Position numbers and translations under genes: made by a program | In this document: positions 1,651-55,295 of the stretch, piece after piece | Numbering within the stretch: the first letter of the stretch is position 1 | How the letters are laid out: each line of letters starts with the position of its first letter | Notes under the pieces: model-generated | Databases searched by the model: none | Told to the model about the DNA's origin: nothing | What the model saw: the letters and a program-made list of their open reading frames with translations, nothing else | From: an uncultured Bacteroidota bacterium | Lineage (GTDB): Bacteria > Bacteroidota > Bacteroidia > 2-12-FULL-35-15 | Assembly (NCBI GenBank): GCA_903926385.1 | Contig: CAIYIS010000007.1 | Location: 71,614 to 135,613 of the forward strand | Reading direction: 5' to 3' | Length of the DNA stretch: 64,000 nt

Positions 1651-3522
1651 TCATTTCTTAAACCTCTTATCCAAATCTTCGCTCGAAAAAGTAGTTATTG
1701 TTGGTTTTCCCGAAGGTGTGCTGTAAGGCATACTGCAGGCAAACAGCTCATCTATCAGGTTATTCATTTCTTCCTGCGTTAATGTTCTGCCCGATTTTAT
1801 TGACATATTTCGTGCCATAGAACGAGCCAGATTCTCTCTTTTGTCCGATTTTAATTCCTGCAGGTTTTGTTTATAGTTTTCCAGTAAACCTTCCAGCAGC
1901 GCCACCGAGTCCATATTTACCGTATCGGCAGGTATCCCGTGTATCACAAATGTGTTCTTTCCAAACTCGCTTATGTCAAAACCCATGGCATGAATTTCCG
2001 GTTGCAGTTCTTTAACCAATGCAAAATCCGAAGCATTCAGCTCTATTGTTTTCGGAAACAGTTCCTGCTGTGTAGCCGACTTATGTTTCTCAAACGCCTC
2101 TAGTATGCGCTCATATAATATCCTTTCGTGAGCCCCCTGCTGGTCTATCACCATCAGTCCCGTTTTAATATGGGTCAAAATATATTTGTTGTGCAACTGA
2201 TAAGCCGTTTTCAGACTACTTTCGTGCAACTCATTATCCCAATCGGCATCTATCGTTTGCTGATTGTTCTCCTCTTTTTTAATCTCTATCTCCAGCTGAT
2301 TATCCGCATGGCGGCTATACATTTTTTCCCAATTAGCACGGTTCGATAATTCTCTTTCCGAAGTGTTGCGCTCCGGCAAAGCCCCCGTTACAAAAGGATT
2401 AAAATTAGGATCCACCTTTATTGTTGGCACTTTATAAATACCATCCACCGGTTTCAGAGGCATGTTATACAAATGTGCTTCCTGGTCAAAATCCAAACTC
2501 GGAGCTATATTAAATTGCCCAAGCGACTTTTTGACAGTGGAACGAAGAAAAGCATAAATCGCTTTTTCGTCTTCAAACTTCACTTCCGTTTTGGTAGGAT
2601 GTATGTTTATGTCTATACTTTTGGGGTCTACATCCAGCGTCAAAAAATACGATGCATAACTGTCCTTGGGCAGCAATTGCTCAAAAGCCGACTGCACCGC
2701 ATGATGCAAATACGAACTTTTTATAAATCGTTTGTTCAGAAAAAAGAACTGCTCCCCCCGGGTTTTCTTTGCAAAATCAGGCTTTATCACATATCCCTTT
2801 ATGTTCACTATTCCTGTTTCTTCCTCCACCGGCACCAGCCTTGTGTTATACGAATTGCCAAACAATGCCATCAGCCGCTGTTTCAAATTGCCTGCCGTTA
2901 GGTTAAACAGCTCTGTGTTGTTATGAAAAAAACTAAACCCCACCTGAGGATTAGGAATAGCCACCCGCTGAAACTCATCCATTATATGGCGCAACTCCAC
3001 AGCATCCGTTTTCAAAAAGTTTCGCCGGGCCGGCACATTATAAAACAAATTTTTAATCGCAATACTCGTTCCTTCCGCACAACTGCTCGCCTCCTGCCTT
3101 TTCACCTCGCTGCCTTCTATCTCTATCATCACCCCCACATCATCCCCTATCCGTTTTGTTTTTAGCTCCACCTGAGCTATAGCCGCTATCGAAGCCAGCG
3201 CCTCTCCCCTAAAACCCATCGTACGGATAGCAAACAAATCGTCTGCCTTTCTTATTTTCGAAGTAGCATGACGCTCAAAACTCATCCTTGCATCCGTAGC
3301 ACTCATCCCGCAACCATTGTCTATTACCTGAATCAACGTTTTGCCAGCATCTTTCACTATCAGCTTTATGTTTCCTCCCCCTGCATCCAGCGCATTTTCC
3401 ATCAATTCCTTTACTGCCGAAGCTGGCCTCTGAACCACCTCTCCGGCCGCTATCTGATTGGCTACTGAGTCCGGTAATAAATGAATTATATCTGACATTA
3501 TTTCTTGTTTCTTTTTGGGCAA
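1651..3522 (-). CDS. mutL: DNA mismatch repair protein MutL
   Basis: The N-terminal GHKL ATPase motifs (LPDSVANQIAAGEVVQRPASAVKELMENALDAG, DNGCGM) are unmistakable for MutL. An alternative start at the second Met (3498) is possible. Confidence 0.9.
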   Translation of the reverse strand: MPKKKQEIMSDIIHLLPDSVANQIAAGEVVQRPASAVKELMENALDAGGGNIKLIVKDAGKTLIQVIDNGCGMSATDARMSFERHATSKIRKADDLFAIRTMGFRGEALASIAAIAQVELKTKRIGDDVGVMIEIEGSEVKRQEASSCAEGTSIAIKNLFYNVPARRNFLKTDAVELRHIMDEFQRVAIPNPQVGFSFFHNNTELFNLTAGNLKQRLMALFGNSYNTRLVPVEEETGIVNIKGYVIKPDFAKKTRGEQFFFLNKRFIKSSYLHHAVQSAFEQLLPKDSYASYFLTLDVDPKSIDINIHPTKTEVKFEDEKAIYAFLRSTVKKSLGQFNIAPSLDFDQEAHLYNMPLKPVDGIYKVPTIKVDPNFNPFVTGALPERNTSERELSNRANWEKMYSRHADNQLEIEIKKEENNQQTIDADWDNELHESSLKTAYQLHNKYILTHIKTGLMVIDQQGAHERILYERILEAFEKHKSATQQELFPKTIELNASDFALVKELQPEIHAMGFDISEFGKNTFVIHGIPADTVNMDSVALLEGLLENYKQNLQELKSDKRENLARSMARNMSIKSGRTLTQEEMNNLIDELFACSMPYSTPSGKPTITTFSSEDLDKRFKK

Positions 3523-3589
3523 AGATAGGATTTTAAATTTCGGGATTCCATATTTCAGATTTCAAATTAATCAACAATTATTAGGGCGC

Positions 3590-3838
3590 ATCAAAGCAAT
3601 CTCTCAAGTTCAATTCGGCAATAGGCAATAAACAATAATCAATCACCAATCTTTCATTTGCCTACTGCCCAATTGCAAAATTGCTTAATTGTTTTTAGGG
3701 CACCATCCTTATCTCCCTTCGTATTCCCCTCTCCCGCTATCCGTTCCAAGTCCGCCCCCGCCATTGCCTGCACACTTCGGGCTTTCCACTGCTATCGGGT
3801 GCAGTTAGTCAGCGCCTCTTTCTTTGTTAGCTTTAAGT
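3590..3838 (+). repeat. dispersed ~250-bp repeat element, copy A (inverted relative to copies B and C)
   Basis: Over 90% identical to the reverse complement of 6594-6740 (shared core GGGCACCATCCTTATCTCCCTTCGTA...GTTAGTCAGCGCCTCT). The left arm shares GAACTTGAGAGATTG and GATTGGTGATTG blocks with copy B. Confidence 0.6.
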
Positions 3839-3869
3839 AAGCACGTAATAATACCCCAACCGTCTCGCA

Positions 3870-4050
3870 TCTCCCCCTCTCTTGTGGAGAGGGGATAAAG
3901 GGGAGAGGTACTTTCAACCCCGTTAGGGGTTATATGTTGGTAGCCACGGGTGAAACCCGTGGTAATTCAAATCCCCACCATCCTCCTAAACCCCTTTAGG
4001 GCGGCAAACAGCCAGTGGCTGTTTGAGCGAGTTCGTGCGTCAGCTGGTAG
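3870..4050. repeat. cluster of GC-rich stem-loops (REP/MITE-like palindromic element family)
   Basis: Consecutive perfect hairpins: CCCCTCTC-ttgtg-GAGAGGGG, AACCCC-gtta-GGGGTT, CCACGGG-tgaaa-CCCGTGG, AACAGCC-agt-GGCTGTT. Related hairpins recur at 5805-5875, 37406-37430 and 40503-40662. Confidence 0.45.
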
Positions 4051-4169
4051 CCTCGGCTTTTCCGTTTTCTGTTTTATTTTTGTTTTAAAAAGAGGGTTGT
4101 GCAACGGCTACTTATGTTAGCTGCTGTGCTTTCTTTCGTCTGTCTTGTGTTCTGTCAGTTTTAATGATG

Positions 4170-4752
4170 TTATTTAATTTCAAGTTTCGTCCAAATACTG
4201 TCTTGTTTCAATTCATTAATAAAGTCGTTTTTCAGTTCTGTGTTAGGAGCAGAATATGGAATTTCTTTTATGTCCGTCTTAAAGCAAACTTTTTCTTTAC
4301 AACTAAACTTTGTCCATTTCAAAGTTACCGCATTATCTTCTCGTGTCTTAACAATAAAAGCAGGAAGGTTTTTATTTATAGTGTCAGTTTCTGCTGCCCA
4401 ATTGGTTGCTTTGTCAACCCGCAAACTGTTGCAAAGTAACAACACTGTATTATTCTTTTGTCTATATGTTCCTTTGTAATATGTGTCGTTGCCAACACAA
4501 TAGTTAACTGCAACAAATTCGCTGTCATTTAAAAATAAAACATTCCCAGAACAACAATCACATTCACCCGTTGCGCGACATAATACTGTGTCAAAGTCTG
4601 GAGCTGTAACGTAAAGTTGTCCTGCAAGATTGATTTTTGTTAAACTGTCTCCTGCGGTCATTAATGTTTTGTCTGCTGTATTTGATTTGCAAGAGAATAG
4701 TCCAAGTGTCAATATTAAAACTATGTTGTATTTAGCGTTTTTCCAAAGTGTC
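4170..4752 (-). CDS. hypothetical lipoprotein
   Basis: The ORF has a signal peptide plus lipobox (ILTLGLFSC) if started at MTLWKN. It has several Cys pairs and no recognisable catalytic motif. Confidence 0.5.
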
Positions 4753-5051
4753 ATTTCTCTTTCTTTTATCAATGTCAGGCTTACGTTACGTTCGGTTCGT
4801 AGCATTGCAGCTAACAGTTATTATGCGCTACTCCTAATCCATTTATAGCGCAATGCATACCTAATTCGGCAGGATTTGCGCTATAACTTGTTCTATTCAG
4901 TAGCGTATATTTATAATAGTTTGTCAAGTGGCGATTGTATTTTGCTTAAATGTTTTTTGCTCACGTGTGTGTGTATTGATGCCTTTGCCGTTGTTTCCCT
5001 CCTCCAAATCTTCCTCGCTTAAATTCTTTTACAAATATATACTATTATTAT

Positions 5052-5091
5052 ATACCCAAAAAACAATCCCACCCATTTCTGAGCGGGATTG
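5052..5091 (-). terminator. rho-independent terminator (minus strand)
   Basis: On the minus strand, a CAATCCC / GGGATTG 7-bp stem is followed by TTTTTTGGG, immediately 3' of the 5103 stop. Confidence 0.45.
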
Positions 5092-5102
5092 ATGTTTTAA
5101 TT

Positions 5103-5675
5103 CTAACCGTTTTTTATTGCTGTTGGCAAACCGAGTACTTTCCTTTTTAAGGATTGTACTTCATCTGTCAAGGATAGTACTTTCCTTATCAAGGATTGTA
5201 CTTCATCTGTCAAGGATAGTTCTTTCCTTATCAAGGATTGTACTTTATCTGTCAAGGATAGTTCTTTCCTTATCAAGGATTGTACTTTATCTGTCAAGGA
5301 TTGTACTTTCCTTATCAAGGATTGTACTTTATCTGTCAAGGATAGTACTTTCCTTATCAAGGATTGTACTTTATCTGTCAAGGATTGTACTTTCCTTATC
5401 AAGGATTGTACTTTATCTGTCAAGGATTGTACTTTCCTTATCAAGGATTGTACTTTATCTGTCAAGGATAGTACTTTCCTTATCAAGGATTGTACTTCAT
5501 CTGTCAAGGATAGTACTATTTTTAGGAAGGATAGTACTCCATTTAGTAAGCCGAGTACTTCCTTTAACAATTGGAGTACTCCATCAAACAGACCGAGTAC
5601 TCCATTTAACAAGTCGAGTACTCCATTTAACAGACCGAGTACTCCATTTAACAAGTCGGCACGCGCGATGTACAC
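5103..5675 (-). CDS. coiled-coil protein built from 21-nt (heptad) tandem repeats; coding status uncertain
   Basis: The minus frame gives canonical a/d leucine heptads (LNGVLGL.., SLTDKVQSLIRKVQ repeated many times) and a terminator follows the stop. The opposite strand is also open through the repeat (5117-5764), so frame alone cannot decide. Confidence 0.35.
   Translation of the reverse strand: MYIARADLLNGVLGLLNGVLDLLNGVLGLFDGVLQLLKEVLGLLNGVLSFLKIVLSLTDEVQSLIRKVLSLTDKVQSLIRKVQSLTDKVQSLIRKVQSLTDKVQSLIRKVLSLTDKVQSLIRKVQSLTDKVQSLIRKELSLTDKVQSLIRKELSLTDEVQSLIRKVLSLTDEVQSLKRKVLGLPTAIKNG
5110..5660. repeat. tandem repeat, 21-bp unit alternating as a 42-bp super-unit, ~25 copies
   Basis: Direct reading shows CAAGGATTGTACTTTATCTGT / CAAGGATAGTACTTTCCTTAT alternating, degenerating to AACAGACCGAGTACTCCATTT units toward 5660. 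Confidence 0.85.
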
Positions 5676-5804
5676 TTAAACTCCGTTTTACCCATAGCCC
5701 AAGTTATTATATGCGTTTAAACGAAGGATTTTTAAGGTTTCGTGTTTTTCAGGTTTTGGGGTAAAATGCGTTTTAAAGCGATTTTTTGAGAAATTATCAC
5801 CTCT

Positions 5805-5875
5805 CCCCTGCCCCTCTCCGCAAAAACACCTCACCCCTTAATCCCCTCTCCGAAGGAGAGGGGGAGATGCGTGAC
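5805..5875. repeat. GC-rich hairpin element (same family as 3870-4050)
   Basis: CCCCTCTCC-gaa-GGAGAGGGGG perfect stem-loop plus CACCTCTCCCCTGCCCCTCTCC; same CCCTCTC/GAGAGGG core as the other copies. Confidence 0.4.
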
Positions 5876-6035
5876 GGTTGGGGTAAGTTTTAAGTATACA
5901 TATATATATATGTATTATATTTGTGGGGGGGAGGAAACGGGTTTGGTTTAACACCTGAAAAGGCGAGAAAATAGTTTAGCAAATTTATATGTTAACAGCA
6001 AGCGTAATGCCCGAACCTAACCGAACAACTATAGC

Positions 6036-6458
6036 GTGAAGAAGATTATAATTATATTGACAATTGCTTTTAGTTCTTGCAACAAATTTAATTGCGAAGA
6101 AGATTTAAGACAAGCAGGAATTAACTTCACTGAAGATTTTACAATACTAAAATATGATTCGGATGGAGCTCTTGGTGATTGGGATGATAACTTTCAATTA
6201 AAAATTAGCGACAAAGACGTGGAACTATTTATAAAAAAGGTACAGCAAACAAAGGGCTATAGAGAGTATAAGGAAAAAGAAATAGGTGAAGGAACTGATT
6301 GTTCAATCCCAGATTCCGATAGAATAACAGGTTATAAAAGAGGGACGACATTTTACTACTATATTGAAAAGAAATATGTAAAAGGGAAAGCAAATGAAAA
6401 TTATTGTATTTGGTTGACACCAGACAAAACATTTCACTTTGCATATAGAATGGAATGA
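6036..6458 (+). CDS. hypothetical lipoprotein
   Basis: Signal peptide with lipobox (LTIAFSSC), followed by a strong terminator. Confidence 0.55.
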   Translation: MKKIIIILTIAFSSCNKFNCEEDLRQAGINFTEDFTILKYDSDGALGDWDDNFQLKISDKDVELFIKKVQQTKGYREYKEKEIGEGTDCSIPDSDRITGYKRGTTFYYYIEKKYVKGKANENYCIWLTPDKTFHFAYRME

Positions 6459-6510
6459 ACACCCCTTCCTCTCCCTGGTTTCATTATAAAACTAAAACAA
6501 AAATAATTTC

Positions 6511-6546
6511 AAACCTCCGTTCAGCAATGTTCGGAGGTTTTTTTGT
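6511..6546 (+). terminator. rho-independent terminator
   Basis: ACCTCCG-ttcagcaatgtt-CGGAGGT stem followed by TTTTTTT. Confidence 0.6.
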
Positions 6547-6593
6547 GAAAGAAATGTAACCTCCAAACTCGCAAAAGAGCGAGTTCGGAGTGA

Positions 6594-6840
6594 GAACTGA
6601 AAGCTAACAAAGAGAGAGGCGCTGACTAACTGCACCCGATAGAAGTGGAAAGCCCGAAGTGGGGAGGCAATAGCGGGGGCGGACTTGGAACGGATAGCGG
6701 GAGAGAGGACTACGAAGGGAGATAAGGATGGTGCCCTAATGATTGGTGATTGGTGATTGAGATGTAAGATTTGAGATGTGAGATTTGAGATTGACGGTTG
6801 AACTTGAGAGATTGCTTCGCTACGCTCGCAATGACAGACA
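6594..6840 (-). repeat. dispersed ~250-bp repeat element, copy B
   Basis: Inverted near-identical copy of 3590-3838. It also carries GATTGGTGATTGGTGATTGAG and GAGATGTAAGATTTGAGATGTGAGATTTGAGATTG micro-repeats and the GAGATTGCTTCGCTACGCTCGCAATGACA tail shared with copy C. Confidence 0.6.
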
Positions 6841-6888
6841 CGAAACTTGAAACTTTACACTTTCTAACTTTAAACTGACAACTCTAAA

Positions 6889-7692
6889 TTAAATCTTAAA
6901 AGTAATAGCCTCCGAAAAGCTAAAATAAAAAGGAGCAATGGGAACTACGGGGTGGGTGTCGTAAATGCTGTTGAAGTTAAACTCTATGCCCACATGTTTG
7001 GTAATGTTAACATCCCATTTAATAACATTGGCAATGCGGGGGTAGATAAAAAATCGGTCGGGACGAGTTTGCAAAAAGGTGGTGAAGAAAAAATCGCTGT
7101 TGTCGCTTACTTTAATTTCGAATTTGATATACGAGTTGGATTTGATATACTGAGTTTGCACCGAAGGGGCGTTATGCGGAATGAGAGTGGAGTCGTAAAC
7201 AGCGGTGTAGTTCCATTGTTCCTGCTCGTACATTACGCCTGTGGCAAGCACAATATTGAACCGAGGATGAACGTAATTATTCCATCGGATGTTAGAGCCC
7301 GCCAGAGAGCGATACAAAATGCCTCGCTTGTTGTCCCACTGATACTGGGCATAACACTCGGGGTGTACTTTGTTTTTATAGTTATGCCGATAGCGAAGAT
7401 GAATAAAACCGGTGTTCAGGATATCGTCAGGCCCGTTGTAAGTAAACCGGAAACCGGATGAAAGCAACAGCAATTCTTTCGATTTTTGAAGAGACATGTC
7501 GAGCGTGTTCGAAGCATCATAAATGGTTGTTTTTTGTTTATCCACCTCCAGCCCACTGCCAAATACTGAATTGAAAAGGGCTTTGGATTTATATCCTGTT
7601 GTATCTATCTTATCAATAGAGATGATTTGCGCCCGCAACAATGGGGAGGAAAAGATAAAGAAAGTAAAAAAAAGAAGTAAGCTGTGTTTCAT
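6889..7692 (-). CDS. putative outer-membrane protein (signal peptide, beta-rich, C-terminal aromatic-x-hydrophobic)
   Basis: The N-terminal signal peptide MKHSLLLFFTFFIFSSPLLRAQ, the alternating hydrophobic pattern and the C-terminal ...ITFKI are consistent with an OM beta-barrel. Assignment to a named family was not possible. Confidence 0.45.
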   Translation of the reverse strand: MKHSLLLFFTFFIFSSPLLRAQIISIDKIDTTGYKSKALFNSVFGSGLEVDKQKTTIYDASNTLDMSLQKSKELLLLSSGFRFTYNGPDDILNTGFIHLRYRHNYKNKVHPECYAQYQWDNKRGILYRSLAGSNIRWNNYVHPRFNIVLATGVMYEQEQWNYTAVYDSTLIPHNAPSVQTQYIKSNSYIKFEIKVSDNSDFFFTTFLQTRPDRFFIYPRIANVIKWDVNITKHVGIEFNFNSIYDTHPVVPIAPFYFSFSEAITFKI

Positions 7693-7883
7693 TCAAAGTA
7701 ATTGATAGTGCAAAGTAACAAAACTTATGGCAATAATTTGATGTGAGATATGAGATATGAGATTTGAGATGGGTTTGCTTTAAGAAATCCGAATGGTGAA
7801 TATAAATTATGAATGCTTAAATCAAGGGGAGTGGTTTAAGTGAATTCTAACTATTGTTTATTTTAGTACTTTTGAGCCCCCAA

Positions 7884-9188
7884 ATGAAAAAAGTAGCATT
7901 TCATACATTAGGTTGTAAACTTAATTTTTCCGAAACAAGCACCATAGCTAGGCTGTTTGAAGAGCAGGGGTATGCCAAAGTGGATTTTAAACAGCCTTCG
8001 GATATTTATGTAATCAATACCTGCTCGGTAACAGCTAATGCTGACAAGGAATGTAAGCAGATAGTAAAATCGGCTTTGAGTATTTCGCCCGATGCATACA
8101 TAGTGGTGGTGGGCTGTTATGCCCAACTAAAGCCCGAAGAGATAGCCGATATAGATGGTGTAGACCTGGTGTTGGGTGCATCGGAAAAGTTTAAACTGCT
8201 GAATTACCTGAATGATTTGACTAAAAAAACAAAAGCGGAAGTGTATAGCTGCGAAATAGAGGAGGCCAACTTTTTTGTGGATGCTTACTCCTTTGGCGAC
8301 CGAACACGGGTGTTTTTAAAAGTACAAGACGGATGTGATTATACTTGTTCTTTCTGCACCATTCCCATGGCGCGCGGAAATAGCCGCAGTGATAGTATAG
8401 AGAATGTAGCCGCTAATGTAAAAAAGATAGCTAAGCAGGATGTAAAAGAGATAGTGCTTACAGGAGTTAATCTGGGTGATTTTGGAAATGATAATTCGAA
8501 CGATTTTTTTCAATTAGTACAAACATTGGATACACTTGCTTTTACTGAAGGCATAGAGCGATTCAGAATCTCGTCCATAGAGCCCAATTTGCTAAAGGAT
8601 GAAATAATAGCATTTGTGGCACAATCGAAGCGGTTTGTTCCGCATTTTCATATTCCATTGCAGTCGGGTAGTAATAAAATACTGAAAGCAATGCGCAGGC
8701 GCTATTTGCGCGAACTGTATGCCGAACGAGTGGCAACTATTAAAAAGGAGATGCCTCACTGCTGTATAGGAGTGGATGTAATAGTAGGCTTTCCGGGCGA
8801 AACGGATGATGATTTTCTGGAAACATATACTTTTTTAAACGAATTGGATGTGTCGTATCTGCATGTGTTTACTTATTCTGAACGGGATAATACAGATGCT
8901 GTGAAACTGAAAGACGCAGTGCCTATGAATGTGAGAAAGAAACGCAACAAAATGCTTCGCATATTATCTGCAAAAAAACTAAGAGCTTTTTATGAGCAAC
9001 ATTTGGGCGAAACCCGAACGGTGCTGTTTGAAGCCGATAATAAAGACGGATTTATGCACGGATTTACAGATAACTACATTAAGGTGAAAACCCCTGTAAA
9101 CAGCCAATTGATAAACCAACTAAAACAAGTAAAGCTAACCGAACTGGATGCGGATGGCTGTGTGTTGGTAACGGTTTTGGATGCGTAA
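7884..9188 (+). CDS. mtaB: radical-SAM methylthiotransferase, MtaB-like (MiaB/RimO family)
   Basis: N-terminal UPF0004 domain MKKVAFHTLGCKLNFSETS, radical SAM CxxxCxxC (CDYTCSFCTIP) and C-terminal TRAM-like region. The MtaB assignment over MiaB/RimO is by the N-terminal motif and is tentative. Confidence 0.7.
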   Translation: MKKVAFHTLGCKLNFSETSTIARLFEEQGYAKVDFKQPSDIYVINTCSVTANADKECKQIVKSALSISPDAYIVVVGCYAQLKPEEIADIDGVDLVLGASEKFKLLNYLNDLTKKTKAEVYSCEIEEANFFVDAYSFGDRTRVFLKVQDGCDYTCSFCTIPMARGNSRSDSIENVAANVKKIAKQDVKEIVLTGVNLGDFGNDNSNDFFQLVQTLDTLAFTEGIERFRISSIEPNLLKDEIIAFVAQSKRFVPHFHIPLQSGSNKILKAMRRRYLRELYAERVATIKKEMPHCCIGVDVIVGFPGETDDDFLETYTFLNELDVSYLHVFTYSERDNTDAVKLKDAVPMNVRKKRNKMLRILSAKKLRAFYEQHLGETRTVLFEADNKDGFMHGFTDNYIKVKTPVNSQLINQLKQVKLTELDADGCVLVTVLDA

Positions 9189-9350: not shown

Positions 9351-12035
9351 ATGCTTACACGAATATCATTAATCAACTCAAAAGGCTATGGAAAAGCCGA
9401 ACTTAAATTAGATAATTGCGACTCGCTTCAGTTGGTGGGGCCTAATAATATTGGGAAAAGTACACTTATTTATGCTTTGAACTTTTTGTTTATTGTAGAC
9501 GGACAGAAAATGTCGTTTAGCGGACAACGAAAAGGAGATAAAGAAACCATTCACCATTATTTTCCTACTCATAACAAGAGTTTTCTGGTGTTCGAAATGA
9601 ACAAGCTCGGGTATTCGTGTATATTGGTTAAAGCCAATTCGGACTGGGATTTGGAGTATTACCGAATAGAAAGCGAATATAACGAAGAATACTTTTTTGA
9701 CAGTCAGGAAAAACATCGTATACGCAGTTTTGACGAAGTGGAAGCTTTGCTTGCCGCTAAAGGAATTGAATACAGAAAGTATGCAAACAAAACAGAAGTG
9801 TTTAATGATGTTTACAAAAGAGGGAAAAACAACAATGCTGTGGTTTGGCTTGAAGATGCAGTAAAAACGGATGGACTGAGTAATAACTTTTCGAAGATAT
9901 ACCGTTACCTTATCAACTCGAAACTTATTACCAATAAAACGCTGAAAGATTCGTTGATAATTGCCGATAACAGAGAAAATGAGGGGTTGAACTTTTCGCA
10001 ACGAAACAAAACGGATATACTTAGTTTGTTAAAAGCAAATCAGGAAATACGAAATATTAAAGCAATTCAGCACGACTTTTTGGAGTTCAGAGAAACAGTA
10101 CGTGTCTTTAATTCGAAATCGAAAATTGTAAGTGAGTTGATTTATTGTTTCAACAAAGCATACGTTTCGGCTATTCCTCAATTTGAAAATACAATTTTGG
10201 AAAAAGGACATAACATAACTTCTATCCATAATGAAATAAACGAAATACTTCAACCGAAGGAACTCGATTTTGCCACACGAATAGGTGAGAAAAAATCGGA
10301 TATAAAAAACAAAACAAATTACTTCCTTGATAAGCAAGCTGAGTTGAATGAAATCAACAAGTTTGAGACCATTGATTTTCTAAATGAACAACTGAGAAAT
10401 CTGGATAAATCTCGTAAAGAAATTGAGTCGAGGATAACTACTATTGAGTCGCAGAAACTTTCGAGCAAGCAACTAGAGGCAAGACTCGAAAAAATAAATC
10501 AGCAAATAGCGTTAACCGAAAAACAAATAGATAACTATAATAACCTGCTTATTCATAAAATTTCGGATGATGAGGATGTGAAAAAGTTGTTGAATACTGT
10601 TCTTTCGGAGCAGGTAGCTAGCTTGTCGAGCAAACAAATAAAAAAACCTATTAAGAAAATATCGAACAAATTACTTAGCATTTTTGATGGTGAGATTGAT
10701 ATTTCCAAAGGCTTGCTTTTAAAAGAATTTAAATCGGTAAAAGAATTTAAGGACGAACTAAAAGCACTGGAACATGAAAAAAACCAAACGCTGGAACTTC
10801 TGAAAGTGGTTACCGATAAAGAAAAAACGGATGCCAAACTAAAAGAAATTATTGGGGAGATAGAGGAGATAAAAGAGAAGGTGAAAAAGATAGTTAGTAA
10901 ACCTCAGCTCGAAAAACACCTTGCAATAGTTCAAGCAGATATCAAAAAGCTTACAGGCGAGCAAAATGATTTGGATGAAGCCTTGAAAGATTTGGTAAAA
11001 GAAATAGCGCAAAAACAAATAGCACTGGAGGCATTCCAGGATGAGAGAAGGAATTTTGAGGTAAGGTTGAAAGAACTTAAAGAACGTAAGATGGAGATAG
11101 AAACCATTACCGACATTGAGCCTACTGAATTTGAAATAACCGATAATCTCGACCACATTTATCAGAAAATAAAAATTCATCAAAATGATCGTTTAGACAT
11201 TAAGCTAAATAAAGGAAGGGTGTTTGACAGTTTGAAAAACAAACTGAATAACGATATAGCCGATGAAGAAGAGTTTATCAAATTTGTGCAGGAAGAGATA
11301 CTTTGTTTGAGTGATAAAGAAAGAAGTATTGACGGCCTTTTGCAAAGTATTTCAATGCAGTTTGCTACTCCTGCTCATGCCTTGATTAAGCGTTATGATG
11401 AATTTAAGCAGTTTGTTTATAATAAATTTAATACCAAACTTTCTAAAACTCGTATTTCTAACATTGAGTCGATGCGTGTGGAATTACTGGATAATGAACG
11501 TATCATTGGAGAGTTAAAGAAAATAAGCGCTATTCAGGAGTTTAACGGGCAAATGAGTTTTGAATTTGATCAATCAGAAAACTTAAAAATACTAAATACT
11601 TATTTGGATAACGGAAAGAAGATAAGTTTTGATGAGTTGTTTAACATTCAACTTGTGTTAACTATTCAAGGGAATGAAAAGCATGTGGACCTTGCCAATC
11701 AGGTGGAGTCGGATGGAACTGACAGAATGATACGTTTGGTTATGATCATGTCGATTATTAACCGACTTGCAATAACTGATGAGCAGAATAAGATAGTTTT
11801 GTTTATTGATGAGGTTGCCACGATAGATAAACAAAATCGTCCGGAGATTGTAAAGTTTTGTAACGAACATTTCTTTATCCCGATTTTTGCCGCACCAGAT
11901 GCAGTAGAAGGATTCAATAAATACTATTTTATTTATCCTTCTAAAAATAAGATTAACATCAATGAACGACAAAATGCAATTGTTGTTGAGAAAAATGGTG
12001 TAGTAGAAAAAATAGGAAAAAAAGTTAAATCTTAA
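9351..12035 (+). CDS. SMC/Rad50/SbcC-like ABC ATPase with long central coiled coil
   Basis: N-terminal Walker A GPNNIGKST. A region of roughly 400 aa rich in heptad-like E/K/L/I repeats follows. The C-terminus has a degenerate signature (ESDGTDRM), Walker B IVLFIDE, a D-loop and a later His. No nuclease partner (SbcD-like) follows. Confidence 0.7.
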   Translation: MLTRISLINSKGYGKAELKLDNCDSLQLVGPNNIGKSTLIYALNFLFIVDGQKMSFSGQRKGDKETIHHYFPTHNKSFLVFEMNKLGYSCILVKANSDWDLEYYRIESEYNEEYFFDSQEKHRIRSFDEVEALLAAKGIEYRKYANKTEVFNDVYKRGKNNNAVVWLEDAVKTDGLSNNFSKIYRYLINSKLITNKTLKDSLIIADNRENEGLNFSQRNKTDILSLLKANQEIRNIKAIQHDFLEFRETVRVFNSKSKIVSELIYCFNKAYVSAIPQFENTILEKGHNITSIHNEINEILQPKELDFATRIGEKKSDIKNKTNYFLDKQAELNEINKFETIDFLNEQLRNLDKSRKEIESRITTIESQKLSSKQLEARLEKINQQIALTEKQIDNYNNLLIHKISDDEDVKKLLNTVLSEQVASLSSKQIKKPIKKISNKLLSIFDGEIDISKGLLLKEFKSVKEFKDELKALEHEKNQTLELLKVVTDKEKTDAKLKEIIGEIEEIKEKVKKIVSKPQLEKHLAIVQADIKKLTGEQNDLDEALKDLVKEIAQKQIALEAFQDERRNFEVRLKELKERKMEIETITDIEPTEFEITDNLDHIYQKIKIHQNDRLDIKLNKGRVFDSLKNKLNNDIADEEEFIKFVQEEILCLSDKERSIDGLLQSISMQFATPAHALIKRYDEFKQFVYNKFNTKLSKTRISNIESMRVELLDNERIIGELKKISAIQEFNGQMSFEFDQSENLKILNTYLDNGKKISFDELFNIQLVLTIQGNEKHVDLANQVESDGTDRMIRLVMIMSIINRLAITDEQNKIVLFIDEVATIDKQNRPEIVKFCNEHFFIPIFAAPDAVEGFNKYYFIYPSKNKININERQNAIVVEKNGVVEKIGKKVKS

Positions 12036-12048
12036 TTAGTCTAATAAA

Positions 12049-13242
12049 ATGAAGGCAGAACCAAGAACCGTACTCCGATTTTTGTTAGAGTATTTTGATA
12101 TTGTAAAAGACCTGTTTGATGCACAAACAAGGGATAACATCATTACATACGAGGTAATGAATGAAATTACATCCAAACATAAAATGGATGTAAAGATTCA
12201 GTTGCTGGAGTATAAAATAATAAGTAATGTTGCGGAAAACTATCAGTTTCGTCCGGTATTCGCCAATTTGATTGAGTTTATTCTAAGCGAGTTTAAACCT
12301 ATGTTGCCCGAAACGATTGAAAAGTATCATGTTTCGATTGGTGAGCTATTCAGGAAAATACGTGAAAATATCAATGGAGATAGAGTTATCTTAAACCAGC
12401 GCATTAGTGAACTGAGTAATGAAATCAATAATTTCTATGAATCGGTAGAAAAGAATACGCTTGCGCTTTTGAATGAAACGCGCGAATTGAAAGCCAATGT
12501 AAAGAAAGTGGATTACCGTGAGAAAATTATTCGTGCATCCCGTTGGATTGATGAGTACATTATTCCGCTTAATAAAATTCTTGACTTAAACCATTCTACA
12601 TCGCTTACCACTAAACTGTATGAGGTGTCGGAATATACAAATCGTTATCGTTTAAATTTTGATGATGAAGGAACGCGAATTCAATTCGAGAAACTCTATT
12701 TTTCATTGATTCAAGTAAACGATAATCTATTGCGGCAGTCAAAAATTCTGACAAATGAATTATTGCCATTAATTGAACGAATCCGGACGGAGTCAATCAT
12801 TCTTTCCGGCTGGATTAATTTTCTTAAGGCACCTCACAAGAAAAAAGTTCCGAAAATACTTGAAGTAAAGAGAAACTACATTTATTCGAAAGATACCTTT
12901 TTTAATGCGGCAGAGTTTTTTGATGCCTTCAAAAATGATGCTGATGTATATATAGAAGATGAAGAGTATGCAGATGAAAAATGGATTTTTGACAAACAAC
13001 ATTACAAAGACAAATTGCAGGAAAATATGCCGGTGCTTGATTTCTTTAAATGGTGTAACAAAACGTTGAAAGAAGATTATAAAAAAGTAGAAATAGAAAA
13101 ATTCTTTGCCCTTACATCACTTGCATTTGAAGAGGATTTACAATTGGAATATCCGGCCAAAGCAGAATTTGACAAAATAAAAATAAACGAGTTAACATTA
13201 ACAGTACCAAAAATTACAATTAATAAACATGGAATATCCTAG
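12049..13242 (+). CDS. hypothetical protein, second gene of the ATPase operon
   Basis: 397 aa, starting 13 nt after the ATPase stop. Alpha-helical composition with no recognisable catalytic motifs. Confidence 0.65.
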   Translation: MKAEPRTVLRFLLEYFDIVKDLFDAQTRDNIITYEVMNEITSKHKMDVKIQLLEYKIISNVAENYQFRPVFANLIEFILSEFKPMLPETIEKYHVSIGELFRKIRENINGDRVILNQRISELSNEINNFYESVEKNTLALLNETRELKANVKKVDYREKIIRASRWIDEYIIPLNKILDLNHSTSLTTKLYEVSEYTNRYRLNFDDEGTRIQFEKLYFSLIQVNDNLLRQSKILTNELLPLIERIRTESIILSGWINFLKAPHKKKVPKILEVKRNYIYSKDTFFNAAEFFDAFKNDADVYIEDEEYADEKWIFDKQHYKDKLQENMPVLDFFKWCNKTLKEDYKKVEIEKFFALTSLAFEEDLQLEYPAKAEFDKIKINELTLTVPKITINKHGIS

Positions 13243-13750
13243 AAACCACCGCAAAATTGTAGACGAACTCATGAGCGGTAAATTTATTTTACCCATTGAA
13301 CAGCATTACGAAGTATTAAAAGAAAATGAAGAATTCTATATTGATTTTTTTAAAATTTCTTTTAATTATGATTTGAAGTTTACTCAACATTACGTGTATT
13401 TAGTATCTGATGAATCAGCAGAAATGCTTTCTAGAGATATGTGCATTTTCTTTGCTGTTTTGAGTTACGAACTTGACCGAGACGGAAAAAACTTCCTTGA
13501 ACGCATTCAGTACACCGAGTTTGAACTGGATGAATTAGAAAATTATTTTATCAATTCATCCTACATTGATTTAATTCAAAGCAACAAACAATTGAAAGAT
13601 GCAGATGCTCGCAAGAATTTTATCAATACTTTAAACAGACGAAATATACTCGAAAAGATTGGAGACAACAGAATACTTTTCACGTCAGCGCATAAATTCT
13701 TTATGGATTTCGCATCTGATATTGTGAAATTTGAAAACGTTGAGGAATAA
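13229..13750 (+). CDS. hypothetical protein, third gene of the ATPase operon
   Basis: 173 aa. Its start overlaps the upstream stop by 14 nt (ATGGAATATCCTAG), indicating translational coupling. Acidic helical protein. Confidence 0.6.
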   Translation: MEYPRNHRKIVDELMSGKFILPIEQHYEVLKENEEFYIDFFKISFNYDLKFTQHYVYLVSDESAEMLSRDMCIFFAVLSYELDRDGKNFLERIQYTEFELDELENYFINSSYIDLIQSNKQLKDADARKNFINTLNRRNILEKIGDNRILFTSAHKFFMDFASDIVKFENVEE

Positions 13751-22141: not shown

Positions 22142-22215
22142 GGCTTCGTAGTTCAACTGGATAGAATGGCAGATTCCGGTTCTGCAGGTTGGAGGTTCGA
22201 ATCCTCTCGAGGTCA
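22142..22215 (+). tRNA. tRNA-Arg (anticodon CCG)
   Basis: Hand-folded cloverleaf: D-arm GTTC/GAAT, perfect anticodon stem GCAGA/TCTGC with loop TTCCGGT, T-arm GGAGG-TTCGAAT-CCTCT. The acceptor GGCTTCG/CGAGGTC has two G-T wobbles and CCA is not encoded. The six-frame GFEPP ORF at 22004-22228 is the usual tRNA artefact. Confidence 0.6.
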
Positions 22216-23513: not shown

Positions 23514-26117
23514 CTAGTGTTTCTCAGCACAAACTGATCCGCAGCTTTTCATACATTCTTCTTTTGTTTTGCAACCTTTGGTGCAACCTTCCATACATGC
23601 ACTTTCTTTTTTGTTTCCACATGCTGCTCCTTCTTTTTTATCGCAACAAGCTTTTGCTCCAGCGTTGCATATCTTTTTACATTCTGTGCAACCTTTTGCT
23701 TCGCACTCTACGTGGCATTTCCCAAAACATCCTTTTTCGCAAGCTATTCCTTTTTCTTTGCATTTATCCATGCACTCTTGAGAACAATCTGTCATTCCGG
23801 CATGTTCCATACACATTGCTTTTTCGTCAGGCGAGCATTTCATCGAATCGCAATATGCTGCACATTCTTCTATTGTCATTTGTGCACATTTGCTCATGTC
23901 GCATTTCATTTCCATTGCACCTGCACAACATTCTTTTTTCATTCCGCTGCACTCTCCGCCTTCTGTTGCACCTGCTACAGGAGCCATTGAAATGTATGGA
24001 GCAATTACCAACGAAACAATAGACATTAATTTGATAAGAATATTCATTGACGGGCCTGATGTATCTTTAAACGGGTCTCCAACTGTATCACCGGTAACAG
24101 ATGCTTTGTGTGGCTCTGATTTTTTGTAATACATTTCTCCGTTTATCATTACTCCTTTTTCGAATGATTTTTTAGCGTTATCCCAAGCACCTCCGGCATT
24201 GTTCTGGAAAATTCCCATCAATACACCCGAAACAGTAACACCGGCTAATAAGCCTCCTAATACTTCAGGGCCGAATGCAAATCCAACAATAAGTGGAGTG
24301 ATTAACGCAATGGCTCCCGGAAGCATCATTTCGCGGATAGATGCTTTGGTAGATATTTCCACACATTTTTCGTATTCAGGTTTTGCTTTGTATTCCATTA
24401 TTCCAGGAATTTCTCTGAATTGTCTTCTCACTTCGTTCACCATATCCATTGCTGCACGACCTACTGCTGCAATAGCCAATGAGGAGAAAATAAACGGAAT
24501 CATTGCTCCAACAAATAATCCGGCCAAAACATTGGCTTTGTAAATATCGATGGCGCTAATTCCGGCCACTCCAACAAATGCGGCAAACAATGCCAAAGCA
24601 GTTAACGCTGCCGAAGCTATCGCAAATCCTTTTCCGGCTGCAGCTGTGGTATTTCCTACTGCATCCAAATTATCGGTGCGCTCTCTAACTTCAGGTGGCA
24701 ATTGGCTCATTTCGGCTATACCACCTGCGTTATCAGCGATAGGGCCGAAAGCATCAATGGCTAATTGCATTGCTGTAGTAGCCATCATTCCGGCTGCAGC
24801 TATTGCCACCCCGTATAAACCCGCAAAATGATATGATATCATTATACCTCCTGCTAATGTCAAAATAGGAATAACTGTAGATTCCATACCTACCGAAAGT
24901 CCTCCGATAATATTAGTAGCATGTCCGGTTGCTGATTTCTGAATAATACTGTTTACCGGACGTTTGCCCATAGCTGTATAATACTCCGTAACGATACTCA
25001 TGATGGTTCCTACCACAAGTCCAACCATGATAGAAATAAATACATTGATATTAGTAAAATCATATCCTCTCAAATTCATATTAACCGGCAACATGTACAT
25101 TACCACAAAATAACTGGCAATAGCCGTTAAAATGATAGACGACCAGTTACCCAAATTCAAAGCTTTCTGAACACTGTCTTTTTCTCCTCTAATCTGAACA
25201 AAGAAAGTTCCGATAATGGAGAAAACAATACCTAAACCGCAAATAACCATTGGCAGCAATACCGGTGAGAAACCATTGAAACCGTCAATTGCAACACCGT
25301 TTTCTTTTGGCATTACAATTTCTTGTCCAAGGACCATTGTAGCCAAAATAGTAGCCACATACGAACCAAATAAGTCGGCACCCATACCAGCCACATCACC
25401 TACATTGTCTCCTACGTTATCAGCTATAGTGGCAGGGTTACGCACATCGTCTTCGGGAATTCCTGCTTCTACTTTACCCACTAAGTCTGCTCCCACATCG
25501 GCTGCTTTGGTGTAAATACCTCCACCCACACGGGCAAACAAAGCGATTGACTCAGCTCCTAATGAGAAACCGGTTAATACTTCGATAGCAGTGCGCATTT
25601 GCTCACTGTCCACATCCACTACATTAAATATTTTAAGGAAAATGATAAACAAACCACCTAATCCAAATACGGCTAATCCGGCCACACCTAATCCCATTAC
25701 AGTTCCTCCTGTAAACGATACTTTAAGGGCTTTTGCCAAACTGGTACGAGCAGCCTGTGTGGTACGAACGTTGGCTTTGGTAGCCACTTTCATTCCTATG
25801 TATCCGGCTGTAGCCGAAAATACTGCTCCTATAATAAAGGCAACGGCAATAATCCAGCTGGAGTGGATAGGATGACCATGTATTTCGTGTACAGTACCCG
25901 AAAAGGCCAGTAATGCCGCGGCAAAAATTACAAATATGCTCAATACTCTCCATTCGGCTTTCAAAAAGGCCATAGCTCCTTTGGCTATGTAGCCAGCAAG
26001 TTCTTGCATATTGGCATCTCCTGCATCCTGTTTGCTTACCCAGGCCGACTTCACTGCCATTACTATTAATCCTAAAATCCCGAAGAGGGGTGCTAAATAA
26101 ATAAAGTATTGATTCAT
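23514..26117 (-). CDS. hppA: membrane-bound H+-translocating pyrophosphatase (K+-stimulated type) with an unusual Cys-rich C-terminal extension
   Basis: Diagnostic DNVGDNVGD and [17 protein letters not shown] motifs; GNTTAA (Ala, not Lys) indicates the K+-dependent class. The last ~150 aa (from ..[13 protein letters not shown]) contain about 36 Cys plus many Met/Lys/Glu, unlike normal H+-PPases. Confidence 0.9.
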
Positions 26118-26195: not shown

Positions 26196-26544
26196 TTATC
26201 CTAATTAGCAAAAAGAGATTTTACCTTATACGGTAATTTTTATAGAAATCAATAATTTCGGAGGGGAGAAGAGTCGATTGAAAGTTGAAATGTTGGAAGT
26301 TTCAGGTATTAGGTTGTCATTATGAGCGCAGCAATTTCCATATTATCATTATTCAATAAACCTACTATTTATATTGCGTAAAATACGACAATAAAAGTCC
26401 GAATATTTCTGAACGGAGGTAATTGTTGCGGTTGGAAGTTAAAAGCAGGGGAATTAGAAATTTTAAGCACCGATATGAAGAGGGAGTTTGACAATTGGGG
26501 CATTCCGTTTCGGGACTTCTGTAATTATATTACATTTTCTTATC

Positions 26545-26780
26545 TTTAGTTTATAAATTCGTGTCTTGAGTTAATCAATTCGTGTCTCCAGATTATAAAT
26601 TCTTGTTTCCAGATTATAAATTCGTGACTTGAGGTAATCAATTCGTGTATTCAGTTTATGAATTCGTGTCTCCGGATTATAAATTCGTGTCTTGAGGTAA
26701 TCAATTCGTGTCTTCAGTTTATTAATTCGTGTCTCCAGATTACAAATTCGTGTCTCTAGTTTATGAATTCGTGCCAAGGT
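26545..26780. repeat. tandem array of about 11 copies of a 21-bp unit (consensus ATnAATTCGTGTCTCCAGATT)
   Basis: Direct reading: an invariant AATTCGTGTCT core with a variable 3' half. It lies in a 1.3-kb gene-free region upstream of hppA. There are no unique spacers, so it is not CRISPR. Confidence 0.85.
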
Positions 26781-27040
26781 ATTTGAGGGTTGGTTTGTTG
26801 ATTTGTTGGTTTGGTCTGTTGTGTTTTTAGCCTTGGTAATTGAAGAAATTGGGTTTTTATACTGGAAAATGTAAAATTTGTTAGGTGTTTTTCAAGAAAT
26901 CGGTGGGTTTTTTAAAATTAGGGATGTGGTGTTAGTAGGAAGGAGAGGTTTGACGATTGTTTCGGTGGGCACATACATTGTATGTAGGAAGAAAATCTTC
27001 TAACTCAGAAACGAGATAGTTGGGAGGGAAAAATGTAGGG

Positions 27041-27296
27041 TAACAAAGAGCGATGCGATGACTAACTGCACCCGACCCGTGCGAAGTATCCTTTTTTTGG
27101 TTCGATGGAGAAGTAGGGAATAACCCTTCGACAGGCTCAGGGTGACGAGAAAGCTCATGATGACTGAGAAAAAGATACCGTGCGAGGGCGGGAGAGAGGA
27201 CTACGAAGGGAGATAAAGGATGGTGCCCTAACGATTGTTGATTGGCGATTGGTTATTGAGCATTAGAGATTGCTTGGCTGCGCTCGCAATGACAAA
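27041..27296 (-). repeat. dispersed ~250-bp repeat element, copy C
   Basis: Shares both ends with copy B (GACTAACTGCACCCGA... and GGGAGAGAGGACTACGAAGGGAGATAAAGGATGGTGCCCTAACGATTG...GCTCGCAATGACA) but has a divergent or inserted middle. Confidence 0.55.
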
Positions 27297-27408
27297 CTCA
27301 AACTTTAGCTAAGATATGAGCAATGCTATGTTAAAATTGCATTGAAAGGAGAGGTAAATCATTATTAAAATCAATTTATCTTTGCTTTCGATGTGCTAAA
27401 ATGGCTAA

Positions 27409-42689: not shown

Positions 42690-42960
42690 TCACATTGTTG
42701 TTACAATAATTTCTCACATTGTTACAATATTATCTCACATTGTGAGGAGAATCTCTTACATTATTACAATAATCTCTCACATTCTTACAATAATGTCTTA
42801 CATTATTACGATAATGTCTCACATTGTTATAATAATCTCTAACATTATTACGAAAATTTCTTACATTGTTACAATAATTTATCACATTATTACGATAATG
42901 TCTTACATTATTACAACATTGCCTCTCATTATTACATTAATGTCTCACATCAATATAACA
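42690..42960. repeat. tandem array of about 13 copies of a 21-bp unit, each containing the palindrome ATTGT-n-ACAAT
   Basis: Units such as AATTTCTCACATTGTTACAAT, AATGTCTTACATTATTACGAT; the half-sites ATTGT/ACAAT are exact reverse complements. There are no unique spacers. Confidence 0.85.
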
Positions 42961-43621: not shown

Positions 43622-43740
43622 ACTACTATTTTTTTTGTAAAAGTACGAAAAAGAAAAATACTACTATTAAAATAGTGAACCTATTTGGAGAATGCATCCA
43701 ACAACTAACAACCAACAACCAACAACTTACCCTTGATATG

Positions 43741-54869: not shown

Positions 54870-55232
54870 GGGGTCGTACGGTTTTGACAGCGAGTGCGAT
54901 TTTTATGTAAGCATGTCGTGTGTTGTGAATATGACACGTAAATACTAATTCTCAAATTTCTATATGGCGAGTCTAACTACGCTATGGCTGCTTAATACCA
55001 AGTATTAAGTGCCTTTGTTTCCGGAGAAGCTCTGATCTTCTGCGTCTCCAGCGAAGCATCATAAACGAAGAAATAGTTGCGAAGAACTTCGATTCGCAAT
55101 GAGATAAAGAAGATAAGTAAACCTGTTGGCCTGCAAACTTGCCTAAGTTTAACGAAAATCAAAAGTAAGCTACACATGTAGAAAGCATATTAATTCCTTG
55201 TTTGGACGAGGGTTCGAATCCCTCCGACTCCA
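54870..55232 (+). ncRNA. ssrA: transfer-messenger RNA (tmRNA); tag peptide G-E-S-N-Y-A-M-A-A-stop
   Basis: The 5' end GGGGTCGTACGGTTTTGAC pairs with the 3' end CGACTCC-A. Internal tag ORF GGCGAGTCTAACTACGCTATGGCTGCTTAA; 3' tRNA-like T-arm GGACGAGGGTTCGAATCCCTCC. About 363 nt. Confidence 0.85.
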
Positions 55233-55295
55233 CTCCATGGGAAGGTTACATAAGTAGCCTTCCCTTTTTTGTTTCACCTGTAAGCGCTCTAATTC

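Follow-up and report, generated by a model that had tools for sequence, protein, structure and literature searches.

The 64,000-nt stretch of DNA analyzed here (the window; contig CAIYIS010000007.1 of an uncultured Bacteroidota bacterium, positions 71,614 to 135,613) holds three copies of a structured intergenic element, termed c1, c2, and c3, of which c1 and c2 face each other across a 2.7-kb segment and c3 lies some 20 kb away. All three copies are very probably members of the Flavo-1 class (RF01705) of dispersed structured repeats of Bacteroidota, and this identity is well supported. They are new but divergent within a known family, nothing unusual in this phylum, and they are neither a switch, nor a transposon, nor a new RNA class. 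Overall, the copies are probably best explained as Flavo-1-class mosaic intergenic repeats that resemble the repetitive extragenic palindromes (REP) and bacterial interspersed mosaic elements (BIME) of other bacteria. Flavo-1 was described computationally only (Weinberg et al., 2010, Genome Biol 11:R31), as a class of 239 members that was scored as a probable RNA, not cis-regulatory, and was given no function (PMC2864571). A functional study of Flavo-1 was not found in a literature search.

Identity of the repeated element

The original prediction held that 3590-3838 and 6594-6840 are inverted copies more than 90% identical to each other. The inverted repeat is present and far exceeds what chance would give, and the high identity belongs to a 144-nt core alone: the repeat finder pairs 3695-3838 of c1 with 6596-6739 of c2 at 94% complementarity (8 mismatches), and c1 is found by BLASTN of the c2 region against the window with E = 3.7e-61. 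Across the full spans the global identity is 74%, and the tails (~100 nt) are 52% identical, with two short blocks (3586-3613/6798-6825 and 3633-3654/6738-6759) being all that they have in common. The third copy (about 27021-27300) gives three separate BLASTN blocks with the c2 region within 27002-27305, of which the 5′ part (27002-27075) is 80% identical and the 3′ part (27188-27251) is 94% identical; the middle between them differs and is longer. A divergent third copy with a replaced middle had been proposed, and while the arms are indeed retained, the middle is better described as a remodelled and extended hairpin of the Flavo-1 type. No additional copies were found in the window by BLASTN with word size 7, by the Rfam E-value scan, or by our own covariance model (R1, built from 12 lineage copies).

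Among the alternatives initially raised was a family of small structured RNAs, and it is this suggestion that the data bear out, with the core falling in the Flavo-1 class, its helices retained through compensatory changes, and related copies at unrelated loci elsewhere. Flavo-1 is the only family that matches the core regions at the E-value level (E-values were computed for the whole 64-kb window), and c1 and c2 match it over its full length (model positions 1-76). At the gathering score, which for Flavo-1 is 42 bits, no family reaches its cut-off in the three regions. The low scores of c1 and c2 arise because the hairpin tip is a G-rich 28-nt segment and not the usual U/A stem. The Rfam model thus misses variants of this clade, with two copies below the cut-off and one subtype invisible to it. 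Other Rfam families were considered and set aside: gathering and E-value scans, run on the window as well as on the three regions, gave a tmRNA, one tRNA, and Flavo-1 only, and sub-threshold matches at 6480-6553 reflect the terminator-like hairpin. The one-piece tmRNA (135.5 bits; 54870-55235) and the tRNA gene (22142-22215) are the only above-gathering Rfam matches of the window.

External copies were fetched from genome and metagenome collections with GMTGACTAACTGCACCCGA, a 19-mer from the 5′ arm that c1, c2, and c3 share without change. The genome collection gave five true matches, located in two Bacteroidota metagenome-assembled genomes (MAGs), and two chance matches that were discarded (L001, Poribacteria; L006, labelled 'archaeon'); the metagenome collection gave eight matches from two lake metagenomes. 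The true matches have a common layout of 5′ arm, hairpin, a purine-rich stretch of ~30 nt, ..TGCCCTAA, and then C-poor micro-repeats. Six of these external copies (L002-L005, L007, and L013) score 65-70 bits on Flavo-1, above the 42-bit cut-off, the window's own hairpin variant is present in L014, L016, and L018, and L011 is an ortholog of the c3 region, 97% identical across 7.9 kb. As is typical of Flavo-1, the element therefore occurs in Bacteroidota as multiple dispersed intergenic copies at unrelated loci; the MutL encoded in the window is 81-88% identical to proteins of 'Bacteroidia/Bacteroidota bacterium'.

The 2010 seed alignment has two subtypes, of which type A reads GCGUGA GGGAUA..AUAGCCC GACC and type B reads UAGCC CCGAUU..AAAGCGGGA (PMC2864571 supplement). 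In c1 and c2 the closing pairs are those of type B, and the interior, GAUAGAAGUGGAAAGCCCG..GGACUUGGAACGGAUAGC, is closely like that of the Flavobacterium johnsoniae type-A seed members in the same supplement. The c3-type subtype was found with the covariance model at a different locus in another species (L029, 20043-20215, - strand). The same contig carries, at 3770-3960 (- strand), a type-A Flavo-1 unit with an insertion of ~80 nt just after GGGAUU, and this co-occurrence indicates that both subtypes coexist in the clade.

The hairpin and a possible larger unit

The hairpin on the strand modelled by Rfam, here called P1, consists of helices of 2-4 bp with conserved purine-rich internal loops between them and a variable tip. 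Aligned to the model, the base of the c2 hairpin shows CCG/CGG, UW/WA, GY/RC, and AA/UU helices with conserved 3-nt purine loops. Standard pairs form in 96.5% of pair cells among the 12 lineage copies, as opposed to 28-50% when the partners are slid, and compensatory changes are seen at two pairs, from U-A to A-U at columns 57/119 (5 sequences) and from G-C to C-G at columns 61/115 (2 sequences). Across the 2010 seed, GGG/CCC alternates with CCG/CGG, and further states are seen. In 13 of 13 copies, it is the modelled strand that gives the better fold and not its complement. In c3 the arms and the blocks GAAGU..AUCCUUUUU and AAAAAGAU..GCGGGA are retained, as are the closing CCCG/CGGG and the arrangement of GAAGU..AUCC with GAU..GCGGGA, and the loops are largely paired.

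Each copy reads as an arrangement in which the first strand of an outer helix, P0 (GCAC/GUGC), is followed by P1, a purine-rich linker of ~30 nt, the second strand P0′, and CCUAA. A table of P0 was drawn up from 13 lineage copies and the six Flavobacterium type-B copies that are given with flanks in the 2010 supplement, with the rows for L014, L016, and L018 read by eye (GGTGC CCAAA, paired). Three Watson-Crick pairs form in the same register in all 19 type-B sequences, as GCA/UGC in the window lineage and as AGC/GCU in Flavobacterium, and a fourth pair in the window copies extends the helix to GCAC/GUGC. The spacing is fixed, with 31-34 nt from P1 to P0′ and its terminal motif, YC-WAA, in every sequence. 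In type A, the counterpart of P0 is a helix of 5 bp that covaries (GCGUG/CACGC, GCGUU/AACGC, GCCUU/AAGGC, GGCUU/AAGCC, and GCGUC/GACGC) and is likewise followed by CC and A/U-rich bases. Pairing of the long 5′ and 3′ arms was also considered and rejected, since arms of the MAG type are direct and not inverted (CGAAGCGTGAYG occurs in both) and complementarity is limited to the helix of 3-4 bp beside the hairpin.

On this basis, the Flavo-1 hairpin could be the centre of a larger conserved unit of ~105-125 nt in which P0 encloses P1, either a linker of constant length (31-34 nt) or another hairpin comes next, and YC-WAA ends the unit. Its fold, strand-specific and junction-like and with a constant motif beside it, might be recognized or cleaved by an enzyme that is specific for single strands; we regard this reading as doubtful. 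The extended unit appears to be conserved from Flavobacterium to the freshwater clade, and in its other subtype it turns up in phage contigs as well and in a Microviridae genome, outside the coding regions. By analogy with REP/RAYT, integron attC, and phage single-strand origins, it could play a part in recombination, integration, or priming. If true, such a reading would supply a function for Flavo-1, which has had none since 2010. The outer helix, the fixed-length linker, and the terminal motif, by which the family appears to extend beyond the modelled hairpin, could sharpen searches and hypotheses for Flavo-1. Only this possible extended architecture, together with its occurrence in phages, gives the material further potential.

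Among viral sequences, a complete type-A unit, GCGUC A GGGAUAGUAGUGG..ACGGAUAGCCC GCCCG GACGC CCAAAA, is located at 5590-5670 on the - strand of Microviridae sp. MG945641.1 (L019), where it lies in the non-coding region of a 5.7-kb genome and antisense to all annotated genes. The type-A pattern also matches eight IMG/VR viral contigs (L021-L028). Neither the 17-mer of the arm nor the type-B pattern had a match in the viral collections.

A transcribed RNA, whether a small RNA (sRNA) or a cis-acting one, is the main rival to a dispersed repeat. In its trans-acting form, the copies would be genes for an sRNA or a protein-sequestering RNA, with the purine-rich (GGA/GAA) loops of a transcribed P0-P1-linker binding protein or targets. 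This is rather unlikely, even though the helices covary, the loops are conserved and non-complementary, the modelled strand is the more stable one in every copy, the tip varies in length as in many RNAs, and Rfam classes Flavo-1 as 'Gene; sRNA'. TAnnTTTG is the promoter consensus of Bacteroidota, and reading of the sequences revealed no such box directly 5′ of any copy; what stands immediately upstream in several cases is a terminator-like hairpin. Furthermore, the domain is followed by heptamer repeats and no terminator. A stable fold of the whole ~250 nt was considered and rejected, and this speaks against an sRNA as well, single-sequence folds being no more stable than shuffles (z-scores +1.5, -0.7, and -1.3). 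Finally, in the transcriptome of F. psychrophilum, Flavo-1 matches are sense or antisense to transcripts, and many lie outside transcribed regions (PMC9723704).

Table 1. Coordinates of the three copies and of features in the spacers around them (positions are those of the window).
Feature	Position	Strand	Details
c1 core domain	3695..3849	-	Rfam Flavo-1 34.5 bits, E 1.5e-3 at 3726-3806; own covariance model R1 148 bits
c1 core parts		-	Leader CTTACTTAAAGCTAACAAAG..; GCAC 3802-3799; P1 3799-3732; purine-rich 28-nt linker; GTGC 3703-3700; CCTAA 3699-3695
c1 tail	3586..3694	-	AT-rich quasi-repeats: heptamer block GATTGGTGATTGATTATTG and degenerate GAGAGATTGCTT.. module
c2 core domain	6585..6739	+	Rfam Flavo-1 35.6 bits, E 7.3e-4 at 6624-6708; R1 143 bits
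c2 core parts		+	Leader; GCAC 6632-6635; P1 6635-6702; linker 6703-6730; GTGC 6731-6734; CCTAA 6735-6739
c2 tail	6740..6840	+	Heptamers TGATTGG x2.9 and TTGAGAT x5.1 (6740-6792; TRF), then hairpin module GATTGCTTCGCTACGCTCGCAATGAC 6810-6835
c3 core domain	27021..27235	+	R1 84 bits; Rfam without match
c3 core parts		+	Same leader; GCAC 27068-27071; linker; GTGC 27223-27226; CCTAA 27227-27231
c3 remodelled hairpin	27071-27193	+	123 nt, ~60-nt apical extension
c3 tail	27232..27300	+	Heptamer-like repeats (CGATTGGTGATTGG type), then hairpin module GATTGCTTGGCTGCGCTCGCAATGAC 27268-27293
Lipoprotein-like open reading frame	4170-4805	-	Lipoprotein-type signal end
Lipoprotein-like open reading frame	6036-6458	+	Lipoprotein-type signal end
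190-aa open reading frame	5103-5675	-	Consists nearly throughout of 21/42-nt (7/14-aa) tandem repeats; called as gene in public annotations
GC-rich hairpins between copies	3852-3914, 5794-5885
GC-rich hairpin cluster 5′ of c1	3852..3990		CCCCTCTCC..GGAGAGGGG, AACCCCGTTAGGGGTT, CCACGGGTGAAACCCGTGG
Terminator-like hairpin	6503..6545	+	CCTCCG-N12-CGGAGG then T7, directly 5′ of c2

The segment between c1 and c2

The two lipoprotein genes, the repeat open reading frame (ORF), and the hairpins said to lie between c1 and c2 were all located (Table 1). The accompanying suggestion of a composite, invertible segment, or one flanked by miniature inverted-repeat transposable elements (MITEs), fared less well. 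That 3839-6595 forms a mobile or invertible cassette, either a composite or MITE-flanked element or a recombinase-driven switch, is highly improbable. The inverted 144-nt cores (94%) do bracket accessory-looking genes (two lipoproteins and a repeat protein), the segment is absent beside mutL in relatives, and breaks in assemblies tend to fall at the copies or within them. The absence is not specific evidence, because mutL synteny is generally rearranged in the clade, and repeats are expected to interrupt assemblies in this way, several public contigs having their ends close to or at the copies or within the array of 21-nt repeats. Such repeats matter for the reconstruction of MAGs from this abundant freshwater clade, in which they break metagenome assemblies at the copies.

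Several findings argue against a cassette. Pfam searches of the ORFs within and beside the segment and public annotations of the neighbours contained no transposase, integrase, or invertase. Alignments of 12-13 copies revealed no terminal inverted repeats or target-site duplications, the ends of the copies are not discrete, with homology fading into different neighbouring modules, and copies elsewhere are solitary. The contigs that encode the exact proteins were also read (6 for MutL, 13 for the DUF481 protein, and 9 for the 211-aa protein), and their gene tables, in which differing neighbourhoods would have been listed separately, show the arrangement of the window only; neither a second orientation nor an empty site was seen in them. 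The exact look-up of MutL gave no match from its TTG start and a match from the ATG 24 nt downstream.

In relatives whose MutL is 85-88% identical, other genes lie upstream of mutL and the element is absent there, which indicates that the copies are not ancient syntenic features. The neighbourhood of the pyrophosphatase gene is not conserved in relatives, and an empty-site comparison intended to fix the ends of the element failed, the gene order at mutL and the pyrophosphatase gene not being conserved. Other mobile systems were considered and rejected: a diversity-generating retroelement (template/variable repeat) would call for a reverse transcriptase, which is missing, and for adenine-specific mismatches, which the 8 observed ones are not, and for a TnpB/IscB guide RNA or a retron RNA, there is no associated protein gene.

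The idea that a 250-bp sequence was simply duplicated on the spot in recent times, without belonging to any family, is already refuted, and we give it next to no weight. It is true that c1 and c2 resemble each other (94% in the core) more than either resembles any external copy (83-87%). Their homology stops at the core, however, and the flanks match different external copies: the c1 flanks resemble L014 over 380 nt, the c1 tail being homologous to the tail of that metagenome copy and not to the c2 tail, and the c2 flanks resemble L016/L018. In addition, related copies at unrelated loci in other genomes and metagenomes match a curated family, and this, together with the covariation of the helices, is why duplication alone does not account for the pair.

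The contrast between a core at 94% and flanks at about 50% points to homogenization of the core between neighbours. The facing orientation of c1 and c2 looks incidental, with each copy in its own spacer, and the inverted geometry needs no special mechanism; the pair is at most a substrate for rare homologous inversion. When 1651-9188 of the window is compared with L031, a 1.26-Mb contig of a related genome, the mutL-rhomboid-rhomboid-phosphatase-SBP block appears inverted relative to the radical-SAM/ATPase block, which would place the repeat-rich spacer with c1, c2, and the 2.7-kb segment at a rearrangement junction. Beside the segment, at 9351-13750 (+), is an operon-like trio encoding an 894-aa ATPase-like protein, a 397-aa protein, and a 173-aa protein marked MksE (public Pfam), which make up a condensin-like (Mks/Wadjet-type) set. 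Elsewhere in the window, a 2614-aa ORF (56138-63982, -) has, at 57627-62479, a 252-nt (84-aa) unit that is repeated in tandem about 19 times.

Spacer context, mode of action, and known systems

The genomic context was surveyed at 11 independent loci. All copies are intergenic, and at nine of the 11 loci the element is directed at the gene that follows, with 304-365 nt between it and that gene's ATG; in eight of these nine, a TAnnTTTG box stands 12-30 nt before the ATG. The position of the box between element and ATG places the element upstream of the likely promoter and not within the mRNA. This is how c1 is located relative to mutL, with a promoter-like box, TATCTTTG, at 3523-3530 (- strand) followed by the ATG at 3498, and how c3 is located relative to the 211-aa ORF, with a TATCTTTG box 24 nt before the ATG at 27409. 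The c3 copy had been noted to sit in a gene-free region by hppA, which agrees with the 1.3-kb spacer found between the H+-pyrophosphatase gene (23514-26117, - strand) and the 211-aa ORF (27409, + strand). Copies c2, L016, and L018 face a convergent gene.

Such regular placement could suggest that the element acts in cis on the gene that follows it (mutL, the 211-aa gene at 27409, or the corresponding genes at other loci), either as regulatory or insulating DNA on the upstream side of the promoter or, were transcription to start further upstream, as an RNA leader. The narrow spacing in the co-oriented loci supports it, as do the flanked F. johnsoniae and F. psychrophilum examples, which likewise lie upstream of a TAnnTTTG box, and the coincidence of several long 5′ transcribed regions with Flavo-1 in F. 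psychrophilum (PMC9723704). Nevertheless, a cis role is improbable. The downstream genes are unrelated (mutL, pyruvate dehydrogenase beta-like, ribulose-phosphate epimerase-like, transporters, and hypotheticals), c2 and L016/L018 point toward a convergent gene, the type-A copy of L029 is antisense to both of its neighbours, which are co-oriented, and the predicted promoters are downstream of the element. Weinberg et al. also scored the family as not cis-regulatory (PMC2864571).

The copies are embedded in a lineage-specific mosaic of other short intergenic modules. The hairpin at 6503-6545, which was missed by a simple terminator scan because its loop exceeds 8 nt, aligned sub-threshold to the terminator part of several Rfam families. 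A hairpin with a T-run precedes c2, L016/L018 (near-identical), and L012/L013/L017, and because it is common to loci with different upstream genes, one of them divergent, it behaves as part of the repeat. GC-rich modules (CCCCTCTCC-N-GGAGAGGGG, CCACGGGTGAAACCCGTGG, and AACCCCGTTAGGGGTT), found 5′ of c1 and with a second cluster at 5794-5885, also precede the Flavo-1 copies in L004, L007, L014, L016, and L018. Together, these GC-rich hairpins make up larger blocks of mosaic, as long as ~380 nt, that several loci have in common. The micro-repeats reported by the original prediction are present at 6740-6792 with a 7-nt period, and related ones occur in c1 and c3. Heptamer-based arrays of 7, 14, and 21 nt fill many spacers (1526-1648, 6740-6792, 7740-7770, 26543-26813, 27232-27258, 42701-42950, and 43698-43726), and their presence at a distance from Flavo-1 copies as well shows that they belong to the spacers of this genome and not to the element. 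In two of the arrays a 21-nt unit is repeated 11-12 times, and one of these two (26543-26773) lies a short way upstream of c3.

The 26-mer class of GATTGCTTCGCTACGCTCGCAATGAC (6810-6835 and 27268-27293) has 15 further occurrences on a megaplasmid of Novosphingobium resinovorum, and a plasmid of Aulosira laxa carries it a single time; its presence on plasmids of other phyla suggests that it is a cross-phylum short repeat. In the plasmid and phage BLAST with c2, this 3′ hairpin module alone was matched. Literature searches on the 3′ hairpin sequence and on Flavobacterium REP elements returned nothing useful.

Taken together, extragenic imperfect palindromes mixed with terminator-like, GC-hairpin, and heptamer modules in varying combinations are what characterizes REP/BIME repeats, and a REP/BIME-like mode of action is put forward tentatively. 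The element would be non-coding and non-autonomous, accumulating between the end of one gene and the promoter of the next. Its strand-specific fold would be preserved by a trans-acting host or mobile-element factor that recognizes a folded single strand, either RNA or single-stranded DNA, and copies would spread and become homogenized through recombination or gene conversion and not by a transposition of their own.

Several points weigh against the Flavo-1 and REP/BIME-like explanation. The scores of c1 (34.5 bits) and c2 (35.6 bits) lie under the curated 42-bit cut-off of Rfam, and c3 has no Rfam match at E<=10. All external copies were found by an exact 19-mer, so the conservation of the arm is partly an ascertainment effect, and the copies counted come to three in the 64-kb window and at least four in one MAG lineage. 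The P0 helix of type B is thin, with 3-4 bp and two states only. The orientation bias of 9/11 (binomial p about 0.03 against 50%) could mean a cis role, and the conserved non-complementary purine loops and the one-strand fold favor an sRNA or cis-RNA over a purely DNA-level repeat. Lastly, a propagating enzyme was not identified in the 64 kb of the genome that was covered.

Comparison with known systems helps to place these copies. Like Flavo-1 members elsewhere, they are multi-copy and intergenic in Bacteroidota, and they share the same hairpin, with CCG/CGG, UW/WA, GY/RC, and AA/UU helices, purine loops of the GAA/GGA type between them, and a variable tip. The Rfam model, however, covers the hairpin alone, whereas the unit of the window appears to add an outer helix, a linker of ~30 nt, and a terminal YC-WAA, and the 123-nt hairpin of c3 is remodelled to the point of going undetected by Rfam. 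The heptamers in the tails (TGATTGG, TTGAGAT, and TAGTTGT) recall the STRR repeats of heterocystous cyanobacteria, which are also tandem 7-nt intergenic units, although the phylum and the unit sequences differ.

Bacteroides invertible switches such as the Mpi-controlled promoters also place inverted repeats around a segment in a Bacteroidota genome. In those switches a promoter lies between repeats of ~20-30 bp, and the genome also encodes a tyrosine or serine recombinase, often close by, whereas here the repeats are 144 nt long, whole genes lie inside, no recombinase was found nearby, and one orientation was seen. MITEs (Correia, ERIC, RUP, and the cyanobacterial Nezha) are likewise small, non-coding, dispersed, foldable repeats that can carry promoter or terminator signals, but the window copies differ from them in having no terminal inverted repeats, target-site duplication, cognate insertion sequence, or discrete boundaries. 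With regard to the REP/BIME repeats of enterobacteria and pseudomonads, there is no sequence similarity, neither a GTAG-type flanking tetranucleotide nor a RAYT transposase was identified in the 64 kb covered, and the Flavo-1 hairpin, at about 70-120 nt, exceeds theirs in length and contains loops that are conserved without being complementary. Despite these differences, both are short, imperfect, extragenic palindromes that occur in many copies and in both orientations, that form mosaics with other short motifs, often near gene ends and terminators, and that have covarying stems.

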